64,000 nt of DNA from Clostridium sp. CAG:440 (GTDB lineage: Bacteria; Bacillota; Clostridia; TANB77; CAG-508). Positions 26,736-35,757 of the stretch are shown in pieces; position 1 is the stretch's first letter, and the number at the start of each line of letters is the position of its first letter. The stretch lies in contig FR898651.1 of NCBI GenBank assembly GCA_000437215.1, positions 29,762-93,761 of the forward strand, given 5' to 3'. Below the pieces are notes generated by a model, which was given only the letters and a program-made list of their open reading frames with translations, was not told the origin of the DNA and ran no database searches. Made by a program: the position numbers and the translations under genes.

Positions 26736-26811
26736 GCTCTTATAGCTCAGTTGGTAGAGCAACGGATTCGTAACCCGTAGGTCGGCAGTTCGATTCTGCC
26801 TAAGAGCTCCA
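26736..26811 (+). tRNA. tRNA-Thr (anticodon CGU)
   Basis: 76-nt cloverleaf: acceptor GCTCTTA/TAAGAGC, D arm GCTC-AGTTGGTA-GAGC, anticodon loop TTCGTAA, T arm GGCAG-TTCGATT-CTGCC, 3' CCA encoded. A31-C39 mismatch at the base of the anticodon stem. Confidence 0.85.
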
Positions 26812-26902
26812 TAATGCATTTTCGCCGAACTGCTTAAAAATATTGATATAAGTAAGTTTGAAGAAAATTCAAAAATGAGTATCAATCACATTTATATAAG
26901 TC

Positions 26903-26947
26903 GATTTAATCGGCTAATTTTTATACTTTTTTTACCAAAAAGTATAA
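26903..26947. repeat. Perfect 20-bp inverted repeat (hairpin) downstream of tRNA-Thr
   Basis: GGCTAATTTTTATACTTTTT-ttacc-AAAAAGTATAAAAATTAGCC. Confidence 0.6.
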
Positions 26948-27072
26948 AAATTAGCCTCAAATCATGTCAAAAACTATTGAAATTTCCGACTTTATCTGAT
27001 ATAATAAGCAAGTAAATTACTTACCTTGCAGATAGCAAGTTTAGTATAGAACAACTGATAACAATAATTATT

Positions 27073-27294
27073 GTGACAGGAGGGACAGCTATGAATGTTA
27101 ATCTACCATATGAAATTGGTACAGTTTTGAAGACAATGGAGTCTGGAAAAGTTCAATACGATAAAGTGCACCACTATATTGTAGGAAACAAAATTCAGGC
27201 TATATTGGAACTGTGCTACGAAACAGATCCGAGATTATCTACACCGATAGATATTGAGGGATTACAACAAAGATGGGAGGTTTTCAAAACTTAA
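27073..27294 (+). CDS. Small hypothetical protein (73 aa) in a higher-GC islet
   Basis: RBS ggaggga. GC clearly above surroundings. Confidence 0.4.
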   Translation: MTGGTAMNVNLPYEIGTVLKTMESGKVQYDKVHHYIVGNKIQAILELCYETDPRLSTPIDIEGLQQRWEVFKT

Positions 27295-27336
27295 TGTCAA
27301 AAACTCAAAGCAGATTTGTTAAGGAGGTAAGAGAAT

Positions 27337-27570
27337 ATGGCAAAAATTAAGAATACTCCATATGGATGGGAATTTGACGTTTGGTGCAATGACTGTAAAA
27401 AGGTTATTACGGTTGAAGGACCAGAAGATTTACGAAAAGAAACCATTCCTGGAGAAAAACATCCAATGTTTTGTCTTGTTTGTCCATCGTGTAAACGAGA
27501 GATTCGATTTGATGGAATTGTGGGACATACATTAAGTCCTGAATTTATCAGCCAGGTACAAGACAAGTAA
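27337..27570 (+). CDS. Small zinc-ribbon protein (two CxxC pairs)
   Basis: CNDC...CLVCPSC. RBS aaggaggt. Higher GC. Confidence 0.45.
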   Translation: MAKIKNTPYGWEFDVWCNDCKKVITVEGPEDLRKETIPGEKHPMFCLVCPSCKREIRFDGIVGHTLSPEFISQVQDK

Positions 27571-27585
27571 TAACCCGAATTTGTC

Positions 27586-31775: not shown

Positions 31776-31798
31776 AATGACTAAAAAATAAAATAATA

Positions 31799-32962
31799 CT
31801 ATTTTAAATAATTTTTACAATACTTATTATAAACAATCATTTGAAGGATGATACTAAACGATAAAATTGCAGCAACTATTCTTAAGTTGTTTATATTAAA
31901 AGCATATACAACAGGAATTAGTAATATTAATTCGCTAAAAGCTTTACCAAATCCATGAATTACTTCACTAAGGTATGTATATTCAAGTTGGTAAGTTGTT
32001 AATGTTTGATTAGAACTTATATTAAATACAGCAGTATCAACTAATATTTGAGTTATTTTATATGCTATATTAAATACTATGTTATAAATAATAAACATTG
32101 TAAAAGAATTGGTGAAGATAATTGGAATCGTTACTATTAATATTGATAAAGCAGATATAAGAAAAGCTTTCTTATTAGATTCTTCTTTTAGATATTTTTT
32201 TACTAACAAGGATGTAATAAGCCCAAGTAAACCAAATAGTGCATTCAAATTTCCTAAACTAGATTCCGAACCTAAAGTCAAAAATATAATAAATGTAACA
32301 GTTGTATCTAATCCGCCTCTAAATCCCATTCCTTCTAAAAAAACAATTTTATAAATTTCTTTAGCTTGTTTATCCTTAAAAGCATATTTCATATTTGAAA
32401 TTTTTATAGGATTAATATTAAATGTATATTTATCAAAATAAAATGAAGTGATAACAGCAATAAGAACAAGTGTAATTATTATAACAAATAATACAGAATA
32501 AGAAGCATTTACAATTATATATCCCATTCCAATTGTTGATATAATAGAAATAAGGCTTGTAACCATGCTGTTATATGAAAATATCTTTTTAAATTGTGAA
32601 TCATTTTTAAAATTATACAAAATCATTTTATATGCTGACCAATATAACAAACTAGTTGCACAATCGAGTACGGCAAATAGATAGATATAATCTTTTACAT
32701 TGTTTCCTAAAAGTAATAAAACAAATAAACAAAAACCATTTGAAAATAAGCCTATACGATAAAATTTCAAAACATTGTTTTTATTTAGAAATTTTAGTGA
32801 CAAAAATGAAAATATAGCATTTAGTGAGTATTTTAATGTGTAATATAATACAACACTGATAAAATTGCCATCTGTAATCTTTAAAAAATATATTGCTAAA
32901 AATAATGATGTAAATTTGCTTACAATACTATTTATAGAATGTGTGAATACAATTTTTTTCAT
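31799..32962 (-). CDS. Polytopic membrane protein, probably an MFS-type transporter
   Basis: 387 aa, about 12 predicted TM helices. Confidence 0.5.
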   Translation of the reverse strand: MKKIVFTHSINSIVSKFTSLFLAIYFLKITDGNFISVVLYYTLKYSLNAIFSFLSLKFLNKNNVLKFYRIGLFSNGFCLFVLLLLGNNVKDYIYLFAVLDCATSLLYWSAYKMILYNFKNDSQFKKIFSYNSMVTSLISIISTIGMGYIIVNASYSVLFVIIITLVLIAVITSFYFDKYTFNINPIKISNMKYAFKDKQAKEIYKIVFLEGMGFRGGLDTTVTFIIFLTLGSESSLGNLNALFGLLGLITSLLVKKYLKEESNKKAFLISALSILIVTIPIIFTNSFTMFIIYNIVFNIAYKITQILVDTAVFNISSNQTLTTYQLEYTYLSEVIHGFGKAFSELILLIPVVYAFNINNLRIVAAILSFSIILQMIVYNKYCKNYLK

Positions 32963-33483
32963 ATCTTAACTCCTTATGTTTTTGCAATAATTTATATTTA
33001 AATTTCTAATTATTTAAATTATACACCAAATTATAAAAAATTCATATACTCCCTTGAAAATATATAATAAAATGATATAAGTGATTTATCAGAGAGATTT
33101 AATCAATTATTATAGTCTTAATTTCGCATACGTGTATAGTTAAGGCACCATTTGAAATCAACTTACGGACTTGAAAGTTTGCTGGAAACAAATCATACAA
33201 ATTATATCTTAGTAAATTATCAAAGTACTCTTTTAATTTATATACTTCTTTTATATGATAATGCGTATTTTTATGTACTTGGTAGCTTAATCTTTTATCT
33301 ACTGTATATATTTTATCAGTACACATCAAATCACATAAATTAATTATTTTTTCATAAATTTTTTATATATTCTTTTATAAACTCGTAGTTTTGACTACTT
33401 GAATCAGTATAATCTCTATCATTTGCTAAACAGTTGATATCATTTATCACTTGAAGTTTTAACAATATTTTCATTTTACAAAT

Positions 33484-34170
33484 CTAAGCCTTTTTACTTG
33501 TTAATTTCATATTTATCTTCTCTGTTTTCAAATCATATTCTTTTATATATGAAGGAAAAATCTTAAGCCACTTATCCATATCATTTTTATCATTAAAACT
33601 ATAAATTGTATATCCTTCATTTGTTTTTGTTACTTCTTTTAAATCTAAAAATCCTTTAATAAACTTACTTCCATCAGAAGTTATAGCTTCTGCACACATA
33701 TTTTTAAATACTATTCCTCTTTCTTGCAATGAATTTATTTTAGAGATAAGTCCCTTTAAAAGATTACTTAAAACTCTTCTATCATTTCTATATTTTAAAT
33801 CTATCGCTATTGCGGAAAATAATAGATAACACTCCATTTCATCTTCATAATTAATTAGATTAACTTCATCTATATCTGTATCTTCAAGTTTATTTGTAAT
33901 AAAATTTTCATATTGTTTTTTGGTAAGCGGAAGAAGTGTTATTTCTCCTACCACACTACAAGTATTTTTATCTTTAACAAATATATGTATGTCCTTATTC
34001 TTCCTGTCCCAATTAATTACCTGACTAACTGGTGAAATCATTTTAGGATTAAAATATTGTGATTCAATTTTCCATACGTCATTAAAATCATTTTTTGTGT
34101 GATTATACTGTTCTATAATATATTTTTCATTCATATTTACAGTCCTTTGTTTAATAAATTCATTACCCAT
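33484..34170 (-). CDS. Hypothetical protein (possible acyl-CoA N-acyltransferase-like)
   Basis: 228 aa. Weak GNAT-like features only. Confidence 0.35.
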   Translation of the reverse strand: MGNEFIKQRTVNMNEKYIIEQYNHTKNDFNDVWKIESQYFNPKMISPVSQVINWDRKNKDIHIFVKDKNTCSVVGEITLLPLTKKQYENFITNKLEDTDIDEVNLINYEDEMECYLLFSAIAIDLKYRNDRRVLSNLLKGLISKINSLQERGIVFKNMCAEAITSDGSKFIKGFLDLKEVTKTNEGYTIYSFNDKNDMDKWLKIFPSYIKEYDLKTEKINMKLTSKKA

Positions 34171-34501
34171 AACTTACCTCCTAATGTTAAATTTTTATAA
34201 CAAAATTATACTATAAATTCTTAAAAATTCATATAATCCGATTGAAATCCCCTGAAATTTTATATATAATTATATGCAGAAAGAGAACTTAGTTTGTAAC
34301 TTGTTGTTTACTCGCTCCATTTGAAATTAACTTATGAACTTAATTGTTTGTAAGTTTTTATTTTATATAAATGATTTTAAAAAAAGAAGAAAAAATTATC
34401 AAAATAATTTAATCCTCTTTTTATATTTGGAATGAAATTTATGTCTAGGCATCACTGAATTTATGCTTCTGTATAAATTCTAATATTAGAATTCCAATAC
34501 C

Positions 34502-35565
34502 ATTAATCAAAGAAAGTTTTTATAAATTTTTCAAAGAATAAGATGTCATTCATTTCTTCAGGATGCCATTGAACAGCAATAATATTTCCCTTTTCAATTG
34601 CCTCAATTGTTCCATCATCAGATTTTGCAGAAATTATAAATTGATTTGCAACATCTTTTATAGACTGTTTATGGTATGAATTAACATTAATATTTTCTTT
34701 GTATACTGAATTTAAAAAAGTACCATCTTTAACATATATTTTATGTAATTTATCTTTTAAATCGTGATTTTCAATTTTTTGATTTAAACTACCACCGAAG
34801 CAACATCTTTTATAGACTGTTTGTGATATGAATTAACATTAGCATTTTCTTTGTATACTGAATTTAAAAAACTACCATCTTTAATATGTATTTTATGTAA
34901 TTTATTTTTTAAATCGTGATTTTCAATTTTTTGATTTAAACTACCACCGAAATATACATTTATTGACTGAAGCCCCCCGCAAATACCTAAGATTGGCTTG
35001 TTAGCATTAGAAAATAATTTAATTGCCTCTTTATCTAATTTGAATTCGTCTATATCATAATTTTTATTTGGAAAATATACATTTATTGACTGAAGACCTC
35101 CGCAAATTCCTAAGATTGGCTTGTTGGCATTAGAAAATAATTTAATTGCTTCTTTATCTAATTTGAATTCGTCTATATCATAATTTTTATTTGGAACAGG
35201 ATTTTCGTTATAATAATGTGGTGGAATATCAATACAACTTCCTGTTATAATAAGTCCATCGCATATATTACAAACTTTTTCTAAGTTTGTAGTAGAAATA
35301 ATAGGGAACAATAATATACCTAATTCATCAAATATTTTTTTATAATACTCTGTTAAATAATATCTATTATTAAATGGCGCTCTCTCTTTTATATCTTCGA
35401 TTCTTTCAATTATTGCTAATATCATTTACTAGAAATAATAGGGAACAATAATATATCTAATTCATCAAATATTTTTTTAAAATGTTCCGATAAATAATAT
35501 CTATTATTAAATGGTGCTTCATCTTTTATATTTTCAATTCTTTCAATTATTGCTAATATTAAAAA
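34502..35565 (-). pseudogene. Class I glutamine amidotransferase (peptidase C26, gamma-glutamyl hydrolase-like) disrupted by three internal tandem duplications
   Basis: ATG at 35423-35425. Nucleophile motif GICGGLQ present (twice). C-terminal AVQWHPE motif is encoded only in a shifted frame, ending at stop 34502-34504. Duplications: 152-bp 34649-34800/34801-34952 (about 95% identical, not a multiple of 3), 123-bp 34952-35074/35075-35197 (in frame), and about 137-bp 35293-35425/35430-35565 (N-terminal copy). Confidence 0.7.
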
Positions 35566-35757
35566 AATGTTGATAAACTAATTTTTCTTCCACATTTATT
35601 CCCCTCCTTTCTTTAGGAAAATATTATTATATCTAAATAAAAAAATAAATAGTAAGTATAAAATCTCCAAAAAATTTTTGTTATATCAAGACAAATAAAT
35701 AAAAATATGATATACTATAAAAAGTTTAAATAAAAAAGAAAAAAACAAGGAGGAAAC

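Follow-up and report, generated by a model that had tools for sequence, protein, structure and literature searches.

How the interval between the tRNA-Thr(CGU) gene and ftsY came to hold its present genes is the question raised by this part of the 64-kb window, by which we mean the whole stretch of DNA that was analysed. An earlier note, made from the sequence of the window, regarded positions 26736-35700 as one old, partly decayed island. The comparisons described here yield a different picture, in which no fewer than four segments that differ in age can be distinguished, and the interval is probably an accretion hotspot where insertions have been stacked at the terminal six bases of the tRNA. 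The mobile-element architecture of the region is of a known kind; what is new is one protein family.

Segments between the tRNA gene and ftsY

The tRNA-Thr(CGU) gene (26736-26811, plus strand; ARAGORN; Rfam tRNA 68.8 bits) has an encoded CCA, and its last six nucleotides, GCTCCA (26806-26811), form the attB core. At the other side the conserved neighbour ftsY resumes, as the earlier note had stated, with an open reading frame at 35758-36663 (plus strand; Pfam SRP54 9e-76). At 78 of 80 loci from other species ftsY is followed by a UPF0182 gene, the remaining two ending soon after ftsY, and the distance from tRNA to ftsY ranges from 0.4 to 6.9 kb. None of the window's accessory genes was found at the tRNA-ftsY locus in these 80 loci. 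The content of the interval also varies from strain to strain within the species, and differences at both levels bear out the suggestion of a variable accessory region. The same-species comparison comprised 16 contigs, 10 of which were picked without regard to this region. On the plus strand of the window GCTCCA occurs at three sites only (26806, 30287 and 34314), each of which is a segment junction; the first two constitute the direct repeat of the tRNA 3' end for which a search had been recommended.

The segment adjoining the tRNA is a cassette of 3,481 bp (26812-30292), delimited by comparison with same-species contigs, flanked on both sides by the GCTCCA repeat and with all its open reading frames intact. 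Empty sites are present in L084, L088 and L090, where the end of the tRNA (…GAGCTCCA) is directly followed by ATGATAA, the core at the junction reading GCTCCA/ATGATAA and the junction lying exactly after 26811. The cassette is found in L087 and L089, in the latter as second member of a tandem array behind a cassette with NT5C, whereas the arrays of L081, L083, L126 and L147 consist of the cassette followed by an element with a serine recombinase and Mob_Pre. Its genes for a KilA-N protein and for the protein p488 recur at 95-100% protein identity; their downstream flanks are of at least five different kinds, and in L129 they are located at tRNA-Gly. Identity to copies at other integration sites is 99-100%, so the arrival or movement of the cassette is recent, and it is the youngest insertion at the locus.

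Behind the cassette lies an older, separate insertion (30293-33150), which occurs in each of the 16 contigs of the same-species comparison. It contains the two polytopic membrane proteins that had been noticed before, one of 416/407 aa (30472-31722, plus strand) with a weak MATE-like match only, the other an MFS transporter (31799-32962, minus strand; MFS_1). The segment is 99.5-99.8% identical in all ten of L081-L090, both genes were found wherever covered in L107-L111, and the insertion is missing from the 80 other-species loci. It is closed by a right end of a second type (33045-33150), which shares 90.6% identity with the right ends of cassettes in L082 and L085, and ends in an old attachment site with the degenerate core GCACCA (33145-33150). 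The adjoining 31 positions (33151-33181, plus strand; TTTGAAATCAACTTACGGACTTGAAAGTTTG) are a remnant of the ancestral tRNA-Thr terminator, which is broken by the next segment; in L084 and L090 the same sequence continues as a full hairpin and T-run, and homologous terminators are located directly 3' of tRNA-Thr in other species (L020, L026, L048, L054 and L073).

The p228 gene and the amidotransferase remnant discussed in the last section represent a further variable segment. The gene for p228 (33484-34170, minus strand) is carried by 33182-34350, at both borders of which lies an imperfect repeat of 37 nt (33145-33181 and 34314-34350) containing GCACCA/GCTCCA and terminator-like sequence. This 228-aa open reading frame had been called acyltransferase-like, a designation that found no support, no Pfam, NCBIfam or PHROG family matching the protein; it occurs in 28 collection blocks only, with varying neighbours. 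According to the earlier note, conserved presence and order of these genes in relatives would refute a variable region; such conservation was found within the species for the membrane-protein genes, whereas neither the cassette nor the distal segment shows it.

The element family and its probable accumulation at the tRNA

Both ends of the cassette are homologous to those of recombinase-bearing elements in L091 and L158. The conserved left end of this family (TAATGCATTTTCGCCGAAC…; 26812-26961, plus strand) shares 80% identity with what follows tRNA-Gly(tcc) in L091 and contains a hairpin with a 5-nt loop and a fold z-score of -5.0. Its 20-bp arms (26912-26931 and 26937-26956) are perfect, as had been described, but it begins 100 nt past the tRNA and not directly after it. 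The conserved right end (30197-30292, plus strand; …TTTTTTCGCATACCTGCTCCGTAATC followed by GCTCCA at 30287-30292) is 86.7% identical to L091 and 91-95% to two copies in L118, and its motif is carried by 42 metagenome contigs. A TTCG motif precedes the core by 17 nt in the tRNA and by 22 nt in both window right ends measured, and is arranged likewise in the right ends of L081, L082, L085, L089 and L091.

Related elements are 5-6 kb in length, integrate at tRNA-Gly(UCC) or tRNA-Thr(CGU) and encode a large serine recombinase, in most cases with a Mob_Pre relaxase. The element of L091, at tRNA-Gly(tcc), measures 6,070 bp and encodes a 626-aa serine recombinase and a p488 homologue (79% identical), while that of L158 has the same ends, is located at tRNA-Thr(cgt) beside ftsY and encodes a recombinase (Resolvase, Recombinase and Zn ribbon) and Mob_Pre. 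Identity among the recombinases of L091, L083 and L085 amounts to 59-63%. Decay via internal deletion is found in the L134 element, and in L118 KilA-N and p488 belong to two different units, both of which have a right end of their own.

A mechanism of accumulation is probable on this basis. Small integrative mobilizable elements of about 5-6 kb integrate precisely at GCTCCA, the six nucleotides that end the tRNA gene. Complete members consist of an ORF of 90 aa, the gene of a large serine recombinase, cargo and mostly also a Mob_Pre/MobV relaxase; tRNA-Gly(UCC), which ends in the same hexamer, is used as well. Every insertion would rebuild GCTCCA at its own far end, so that a next element can land between the tRNA and the previous insertion, and older insertions would be pushed towards ftsY as newer ones land beside the tRNA. 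The cassette has the family ends but lost both serine recombinase and Mob_Pre relaxase, which are missing from 26812-30292, and it is thus non-autonomous and CIME-like. In agreement with the earlier note, no integrase or transposase is present in 26736-35700, and a homologue of the elements' serine recombinase was found nowhere in the 64-kb window. Presumably the cassette would move only by means of a related recombinase acting in trans, or along with a neighbouring element. Because the arms of co-resident elements differ from those of the cassette (left end AAAGGTAAAATCG… versus TAATGCATTTTCG…), cross-recognition is uncertain, and since the excised-circle junction was not found in JGI metagenome or IMG/VR contigs, current mobility is putative.

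Among described systems, the integrative mobilizable elements of the Tn4451/Tn4453 type in Clostridia (large serine recombinase TnpX, TnpV and MobV relaxase TnpZ; reviewed in PMC5704250) resemble these elements, as L083, L085 and L158 carry the same gene set (large serine recombinase, Mob_Pre/MobV and, in some, TnpV) in about 5-6 kb with very short flanking repeats. However, Tn4451 has a 2-bp core and low integration specificity, and site-specific serine-recombinase IMEs have been described as inserting inside genes (PMC5704250), whereas the elements found here target the extreme 3' end (GCTCCA) of tRNA-Thr(CGU) and tRNA-Gly(UCC), without damage to the tRNA; a further difference from Tn4451/Tn4453 is that the window copy lacks recombinase and relaxase. 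The tandem elements at a regenerated site in L081, L083, L126, L147 and L089 are similar to CIMEs (cis-mobilizable elements) and tandem accretion as in ICESt1/ICESt3 of Streptococcus thermophilus, for which a three-step model exists (PMC5704250). The classic cases involve tyrosine integrases instead of the large serine type, and mobilisation of the window cassette is putative.

Cargo genes of the cassette

The cassette carries two small genes on the plus strand. The product of p73 (27091-27294) has 67 aa when read from an ATG with ribosome-binding site (27091) and 73 aa from a GTG at 27073; it is predicted to form a small SH3/Tudor-like beta-barrel (AlphaFold2 pLDDT 89.7), for which Foldseek gave weak SH3/Tudor-type matches only, and its homologues fall in 42 clusters, none of them named. 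The Cys-rich, zinc-ribbon-like p77 (CxxC…CxxCxxC; 27337-27570), with weak, sub-threshold zinc-ribbon matches, is nearly confined to this element (6 clusters only among 5.8 billion). The description of two small higher-GC genes was correct: GC contents are 34.8% for p73, 36.8% for p77 and 36.5% for both together versus 25.9% for the window. A promoter-like site (26977-27005) belongs to these genes, as does a common hairpin (27579-27644).

The KilA-N protein (265 aa; 27663-28460; Pfam KilA-N E = 2e-24) is encoded, as had been observed, on the opposite strand, with promoter-like sites upstream at 28505-28576. It fits the PADLOC profile PDC-S22 from end to end (6e-129) and also matches phrog_2657, a phage 'transcriptional regulator' PHROG (2e-60). 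PDC-S22 is a PADLOC defence candidate from a class of systems that are predictions by 'guilt by embedding' (10.1101/2024.01.29.577857). The window protein would accordingly be a DNA-binding member of a candidate class.

The gene for p488 (28628-30094) likewise lies on the opposite strand, as noted before. The protein is no orphan, as had been thought, since a word-indexed search gave 75 clusters and a full HMMER search 1,161 clusters (50% identity, E <= 1e-3), which makes it part of a widespread family that is named in no database. An AlphaFold2 model (pLDDT 94.4, pTM 0.92) predicts an N-terminal helical domain and a C-terminal PD-(D/E)xK nuclease-like domain, with E264, E283, D297, E310 and K312 as the presumed catalytic residues. 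The motif E…D…(D/E)xK is invariant in the family: D297 and K312 do not vary, only E or D occurs at position 310, and conservation is 98% for E264 and E283. Foldseek E-values are modest, the best match being Upx (9wuf; E = 5e-4, TMq 0.40), followed by R.BspD6I, Can2 and Card1. There is no sequence match in the PDB, and none to PADLOC models except a marginal one to HEC-02B (E = 0.003, 67 residues, nuclease core). On this model p488 is a predicted metal-dependent PD-(D/E)xK nuclease, of which the large helical domain would sense or regulate.

Upx, a single-protein dual PD-(D/E)xK anti-phage nuclease (PDB 9wuf; PMC13099982), shares with p488 the catalytic core, the single-gene organisation and the location in defence islands, but it is larger (1,212 aa as against 488) and contains two nuclease domains where p488 has one. 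Membership of the Upx family was rejected, as there is neither detectable sequence similarity nor a PADLOC Upx match. HEC-02B, a NERD-like PD-(D/E)xK effector (10.1101/2024.01.29.577857), works with an ABC ATPase partner that is missing here, and the match is too weak for p488 to be included.

Ten of 11 p488 homologue contexts (inspected without background control) are defence islands or mobile elements, with PDC-M12, PDC-M37, PDC-S20, HEC-01/AbiL-like genes, type I RM with McrBC, DarTG-like genes and again PDC-S22 as neighbours; the L098 context has no defence genes. The family is carried on integrative elements and plasmids, and is also found apart from any recognisable element (L098, L100). 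Together with the PDC-S22 match, these contexts agree with the earlier supposition of a defence neighbourhood, and KilA-N and p488 are likely anti-phage cargo; they are independent units that do not form an obligate pair.

Alternative readings and the amidotransferase duplication

It is very improbable that 26736-35700 represents a single old decaying genomic island. Such an island would suit the position of 26812-33150, all of it between the tRNA and the ancestral terminator, the absence of the genes at this locus in 80 other species, the loss of any integrase and the degraded GATase gene, but the empty-site alleles of L084, L088 and L090 contradict it. Further points against it are three internal att-like junctions, the independent presence or absence of the first 3.5 kb, the independent variation of the p228 segment and a membrane-protein pair that no same-species contig compared lacks. 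An unlikely reading of the cassette itself is that of a dead remnant of a once-integrated serine-recombinase element, spread vertically or by homologous recombination in the flanks, with genes that are leftover functions instead of selected cargo. The missing recombinase and relaxase, a circular junction that appeared in neither of two collections, decay intermediates such as L134 and the phage-regulator match of KilA-N would all fit. However, the occurrence of nearly identical KilA-N and p488 genes behind two tRNA genes and at least five downstream flanks cannot be accounted for by homologous recombination through the flanks, L118 has the two genes in separate units with their own right ends, and, besides the intact reading frames, the full length and catalytic residues of p488 are kept across about 1,100 clusters, which indicates selection.

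KilA-N and p488 could also be of use to the mobile element instead of the host, through anti-defence, inter-element competition or as a regulator with a processing nuclease. KilA-N domains are indeed common in phage regulators and antirepressors (phrog_2657, phrog_129), and p488 travels on integrative elements and plasmids, a few of its homologues lying in viral contigs. This role is nevertheless quite improbable: viral collections contain p488 very seldom (a single one of 50,697 phage records; 4 loci among 2.9 million viral contigs), the genes next to it belong mostly to host-type defence systems and not to phages, and it also occurs away from recognisable elements; a defence function for the host is preferred.

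The amidotransferase gene at the distal end is a Peptidase_C26/GATase remnant (Pfam; 34320-35559, minus strand), the neighbouring NT5C gene being lost. The duplication that had been reported is present in the sequence, as three internal tandem duplications of 152, 123 and 137 nt (34648-34951, 34950-35195 and 35290-35559) that are private to this assembly, as comparison with L090 and L108 indicated. A real strain-specific rearrangement is nonetheless doubtful. The copies do differ by 4-10%, and the inner ones match no allele elsewhere better than 94-97%, but such divergence is implausible in a genome that is 99.7% identical to conspecifics. Moreover, the resulting 213-aa ORF was not found among about 15 billion proteins, and L108 and L109, arranged likewise in other respects, lack the extra 412 bp, the outer pieces being 99.4-100% identical to L108. 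The triple duplication is probably an artefact, with a pattern that fits co-existing alleles joined end to end.

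A layered integration hotspot behind tRNA-Thr

The region between tRNA-Thr(CGU) and ftsY (window 35758-36663, plus strand) was regarded in an earlier note as one old, partly decayed island. The observations behind that view were largely right, and all ORFs that it listed exist, but the interpretation needs revision: empty alleles, internal junctions and an old terminator show a layered integration hotspot instead. The newest layer, a cassette of 3,481 bp at window 26812-30292, is a recombinase-less derivative of a serine-recombinase element specific for tRNA ends, and its cargo consists of one catalogued defence candidate and one uncatalogued nuclease-like family. 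The architecture is of a known kind; what is new is the choice of target by the recombinase family and a nuclease family that no database names. A vague island is thereby replaced by a hotspot defined to the single nucleotide, the host being an uncultured Clostridium that is very common in the human gut, and its alternative cargo can be catalogued across thousands of metagenomes.

The host is a low-GC uncultured gut Clostridium, for which comparisons were made at two levels, with ten long contigs of the same species (L081-L090) and with the ftsY loci of 80 other species (L001-L080). A total of 3,149 blocks of the assembly collection, among them a 1.7-Mb contig of the metagenome-assembled genome GCA_025992245.1, contain this very FtsY sequence, which is only 77-89% identical to FtsY of the 80 nearest species representatives. 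A UPF0182 gene follows ftsY in 78 of the 80 other-species loci, the remaining two of which stop shortly past ftsY, and tRNA-Thr(cgt) is often found 0.4-6.9 kb upstream of ftsY, in either orientation. The synteny comparison with relatives that had been proposed as a check bore out the lack of conservation, as none of the eight genes of the finding is present at this locus in the 80 other species. Their tRNA-ftsY intervals contain housekeeping-type genes (PRPP synthetase, Ham1) mixed with accessory genes (MazF, Abi_2, ORF6N, HEPN/NTase, a resolvase), and in several species a hairpin terminator of the form TTTGAA…AACTTACGAAC…GTTTGTAAGTTTTT lies directly 3' of the tRNA. In five other species (L009, L032, L034, L044, L062) tRNA-Thr(cgt) is followed by the motif (A/T)TAAGTAAAATCGTCGCAC, which is the left-end motif of another element type, as in the same-species contigs L081 and L085. 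The tRNA end is thus an integration target shared throughout the bacterial family.

Within the species, the insertion can be defined precisely. The tRNA-Thr(cgt) gene at 26736-26811 was identified by both ARAGORN and Rfam, and in three contigs that lack the cassette (L084, L088, L090) it abuts ATGATAATAAAGGG…, followed by both membrane-protein genes. An extra 3.48 kb is present at precisely that junction in the window and in L087. BLAST sets the left break point after 26811 and the right one at 30287, the two sides overlapping by 6 bp; the hexamer GCTCCA, which forms the last six nucleotides of the tRNA, is found once at each cassette border (26806-26811 and 30287-30292) and as a single copy in the empty allele, of which the attB sequence is …AAGAGCTCCA-ATGATAATAAAGGG…. 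The direct repeat of the tRNA 3' end that was to be looked for thus exists, and the plus strand of the 64-kb window has no GCTCCA other than those at 26806, 30287 and 34314.

The site is also occupied by other elements. The cassette is present in L089 as well, whereas L082 carries an EamA/acetyltransferase set and L085 an element with a serine recombinase, TnpV, a NikA-like protein and an ABC transporter; in L081, L083 and L086 an element with a serine recombinase, Mob_Pre and a YhcG-like gene is found. All alternative occupants of this point terminate in …GCTCCA|ATGATAA. Tandem arrays occur too: in L089 an NT5C/nucleoside-hydrolase cassette precedes the window's cassette, and in L081 and L083 the recombinase element comes after the right end of the window's cassette. 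Insertion at a tRNA 3' end, a direct repeat at the far boundary and variable presence among close relatives are properties of a tRNA-associated island, but an integrase or recombinase gene of its own is lacking.

Ends, relatives and mobility of the cassette

The absence of recombination genes agrees with the earlier statement that no integrase or transposase is left: neither a recombinase nor a transposase domain is encoded in any ORF of 26812-35700, and tblastn with the family recombinases gave no match in the window. The origin of the cassette is indicated by its ends. In L091, a contig of another species, a 6,070-bp element is inserted at the 3' end of tRNA-Gly(tcc) with the junction …CCCGCTCCA|TAATGCGTTTTCGTCGAAC…, and encodes a large serine recombinase of 626 aa together with a homologue (79% identical) of the 488-aa cassette protein, p488. 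Its left end is 80% identical to window 26787-26961, and its right end is 87% identical to window 30197-30293. The left end includes the region of a perfect 20-bp hairpin (arms at 26912-26931 and 26937-26956, loop of 5 nt); the hairpin had been placed directly after the tRNA, but starts 100 nt past it. A search of 26000-36500 against Rfam at permissive thresholds returned the tRNA only, and no known RNA family was matched by the hairpin.

When metagenome contigs were scanned for the right-end motif, 42 loci were obtained, and 14 of these encode a recombinase with 75-90% identity to the L091 enzyme. Complete elements of 4.8-6.3 kb consist of the left end, a 90-aa ORF, the serine recombinase, a Mob_Pre relaxase, cargo and the right end, and are located behind tRNA-Gly(tcc) or, in L158, behind tRNA-Thr(cgt) adjoining ftsY. 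The relaxase is intact in L158, L135 and L120 and split in L132. Recombinase and relaxase are both present in L083 and L158, which use the same target site as the cassette, and a recombinase is also found in L091 and L132; identities among the L091, L083 and L085 recombinases are 59-63%. By both ends the cassette therefore belongs to this element family, but recombinase and relaxase are absent from it. Its att arms are homologous to those of autonomous serine-recombinase integrative mobilizable elements (IMEs, Tn4451-like), of which the large serine recombinase and the relaxase are lacking here. With attL and attR kept, recombination and transfer genes gone, and tandem arrangements with autonomous elements (L081, L083, L126, L147), it resembles a cis-mobilizable element (CIME), the excision or transfer of which would be driven by a neighbouring element. 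A 2.06-kb element with both family ends (L134:181-2241), in which an internal deletion fuses the N-terminus of a serine recombinase in frame to the C-terminus of a relaxase, shows how recombinase-less derivatives arise.

Other types of element were considered in view of the hexamer, fixed at one end, and of the subterminal hairpin, which would suit an integron-like system or a single-strand element of the IS200/IS605 or IS91 type. These readings were rejected as complete relatives encode a large serine recombinase and a relaxase; moreover, unlike in an integron, there is no IntI tyrosine integrase, and the cassette ends are serine-recombinase att arms rather than attC sites. The right ends might also be degenerate copies of the tRNA gene and its promoter, but the alignment shares the TTCG motif and the core only. 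The distance from TTCG to the core is 17 nt in the tRNA (T-loop; window 26789-26805) and 22 nt in both window right ends that were measured (30265-30286 and 33123-33144), with which the printed right ends of other elements agree. In large serine integrases, the zinc-ribbon motif lies about 5 bp further out in attP than in attB half-sites. The 5-nt offset would fit attB and attP half-sites of such enzymes, and the shared TTCG and core appear to be better explained by the expected resemblance between these half-sites than by degenerate tRNA copies.

The locus follows the scheme of IMEs, CIMEs and accretion that is reviewed in PMC5704250. The site-specific serine-recombinase IMEs in that review are described as inserting within genes, whereas the elements found here use the very end of a tRNA gene, which stays intact. 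Among large serine recombinases, a target formed by the terminal hexamer of two tRNA genes is uncommon, and such enzymes are also of interest as genome-engineering tools.

Recent movement is indicated by copies of the KilA-N and p488 genes that share 95-100% protein identity and are followed by at least five distinct sequences, namely the membrane-protein gene, either of two kinds of recombinase element, or either of two tRNA terminators. The pair lies behind tRNA-Gly(tcc) in L129, and in L118 the two genes (95% and 83% identical) are in separate units that each close with the same 95-bp right end and GCTCCA. Homologous exchange via the flanks cannot explain this pattern, which implies that the units were moved by site-specific recombination in the recent past. 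The junction expected for an excised circle or tandem copy, …CCTGCTCCGTAATC-GCTCCA-TAATGCATTTTCGCC… (right end, core and left end), gave no match in JGI metagenome or IMG/VR contigs. The L129 copy (4479-10355), with KilA-N and p488 proteins 95% and 99% identical to those of the window, has an arginyl-tRNA synthetase gene and a UPF0236 transposase fragment between the element left end and the KilA-N gene, representing either odd cargo or a composite structure.

Cargo genes and the p488 family

The KilA-N protein (27663-28460, minus strand) has a clear KilA-N domain (E = 2e-24), as noted earlier, and matches the PADLOC model PDC-S22 over its full length (E = 6.2e-129; residues 3-260 on profile positions 6-268 of 281). 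A further match is to a PHROG annotated as phage 'transcriptional regulator'. PDC systems are listed by their source paper as predicted candidates, discovered inside BREX, DISARM and type I RM loci in which they are embedded (10.1101/2024.01.29.577857).

The p488 protein (28628-30094, minus strand) had been called an orphan, but a profile search revealed a family of 1,161 clusters at 50% identity, mostly of 470-510 aa. No match was found in Pfam, NCBIfam or PHROG, and the p488 alignment, used as a profile against PDB sequences, found none even at E ≤ 10. An AlphaFold2 model based on an alignment of 49 homologues (pLDDT 94.4, pTM 0.92) shows for residues 252-376 a helix, strands, a helix and a strand, which is the alpha-beta-beta-beta-alpha-beta core fold of the PD-(D/E)xK superfamily. 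The D…(D/E)xK motif and upstream Glu of this superfamily are present as well: D297 and K312 are conserved in 49/49 homologues, E264 and E283 in 48/49, and position 310 is E in 32 and D in 17. In the model D297 precedes strand 298-302, and E310 and K312 lie within strand 305-312, so the predicted catalytic site is canonical for PD-(D/E)xK enzymes. Foldseek against the PDB gave the defence nuclease Upx as top hit (9wuf; E = 5e-4, TMq 0.40), followed by R.BspD6I, VC1899, Can2/Card1, McrC and RecU, and its viral library returned PD-(D/E)xK proteins as well. However, Upx has about 1,200 aa and two nuclease domains, whereas p488 has 488 aa and one, and neither PADLOC (Upx) nor the PDB gave a sequence match; p488 is thus not a member of the Upx family.

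Of the distinct p488 contexts inspected, 10 of 11 show defence or mobile-element neighbours. These include PDC-S22 KilA-N (window, L095, L118), a serine-recombinase element (L091), an AbiL/HEC-01-like pair with the PDC-S20 KAP NTPase (L092-L094), PDC-M12 (L101), PDC-M37 on a Priestia plasmid (L096), type I RM with McrBC (L100), DarTG-like genes (L113) and DUF2971/DUF3800/HNH genes (L116); L098 has neither kind of neighbour. The family is nearly absent from viral collections. Being compact, widespread, confidently modelled and named in no database, it is a tractable candidate defence nuclease. We put forward, tentatively and with more doubt than conviction, that the p488 family, which combines a helical N-terminal domain with a PD-(D/E)xK core, comprises about 1,100 clusters across Firmicutes and lacks sequence matches in Pfam, PADLOC and the PDB, is a single-gene anti-phage nuclease that has so far gone unrecognised. 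It would be carried as cargo by large-serine-recombinase elements whose specificity, for the terminal GCTCCA of tRNA-Thr and tRNA-Gly, is unusual, and the stacked arrays would be exchangeable defence slots in gut Clostridia. In L092:4076-8784 and L101:4116-7458 the p488 homologue follows an ABC-type ATPase and small-protein pair (AbiL/PDC-M12-like) with gaps of 15-17 nt, and some family members may act within such a three-gene unit.

The two small plus-strand genes, encoding proteins of 73 and 77 aa (p73 and p77), indeed have a higher GC content, 36.5% as compared to 25.9% for the window. The first protein is a small SH3/Tudor-like barrel with 42 unnamed homologues, the second a Cys-rich protein with six. 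Both are absent from all other p488 contexts inspected, and KilA-N recurs with p488 in L095 and L118, yet differs there in orientation and forms a unit of its own; p73, p77 and KilA-N were therefore rejected as obligate operon partners of p488. A natural chimera of 109 aa (Logan protein P0123) combines the N-terminal half of a MazF/PemK toxin with a C-terminal half homologous to p73, which hints that p73 may be related to, or recombine with, MazF-type genes.

Older layers, the amidotransferase gene and a tmRNA neighbourhood

The segment with the two membrane-protein genes (30293-33150) is 99.5-99.8% identical in 10/10 contigs L081-L090, and both genes are present wherever covered in the further same-species contigs L107-L111; the segment was not found in other species at the locus. 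One protein is an MFS transporter, and the other, of 416 aa, has no Pfam match even at E ≤ 5 and a sub-threshold MATE match only. The segment closes with a 106-bp sequence that shares 90.6% identity with the cassette right ends in L082 and L085, followed by a degenerate core, GCACCA, and then by the terminator that directly follows tRNA-Thr in other species. The ancestral terminator past 33150 implies that all of 26812-33150 sits between the tRNA and its original terminator, and the membrane-protein pair is an earlier insertion, apparently fixed in the species.

This second type of right end, of about 106 bp (window 33045-33150; L082:5294-5399; L085:6027-6132; L089:1792-1945), has a TTGAAA/TATAAT-like promoter pair, which is near-consensus (TTGAAA-N17-TATAAT) in L082, L085 and L089 and weaker (TTCATA-N16-TATAAT) in the window copy. 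The pair points outward, through the core into the tRNA terminator, and may be an outward promoter or a source of a small transcript.

A 1.17-kb segment interrupts the terminator at 33181 and has at its borders a 37-nt imperfect repeat, part of which is GCACCA/GCTCCA. The segment holds the gene for a 228-aa protein (33484-34170, minus strand), found in only 28 collection blocks; the label acyltransferase-like given to it before is supported by no family, and Pfam gave no match even at E ≤ 5. The interval from this gene to ftsY varies, with a 200-aa gene, a truncated C26 gene, or Abi_alpha and a peptidase-like gene.

The Peptidase_C26/GATase gene that immediately precedes ftsY in the window contains three tandem duplications (34648-35559), which are adjacent, measure 152, 123 and 137 nt and have copies 90-96% alike. 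The same-species contigs L108 and L109 have the window's arrangement minus 412 bp, exactly the sum of these lengths. The outer pieces of the window gene are 99.4-100% identical to L108, the inner pieces 94-97% at best to any allele, and the 213-aa duplicated ORF is not on record in any public collection searched. Copies that are 4-10% apart, in a genome otherwise 99.7% like its conspecifics, suggest that co-existing alleles were joined end to end by the assembler. The duplications of the supposed pseudogene are thus present in the sequence, but the triple duplication is probably a chimeric assembly artefact and not a genuine genomic feature, and serves as a warning about the assembly.

Elsewhere in the window, a higher-GC stretch past the tmRNA gene (48156-48507; tag ADNRELALAA) was checked for another island and contained nothing like a mobile element; ORFs near the tmRNA gene encode a DUF4097 protein, an MFS transporter, a methyladenine glycosylase and an M14 peptidase.
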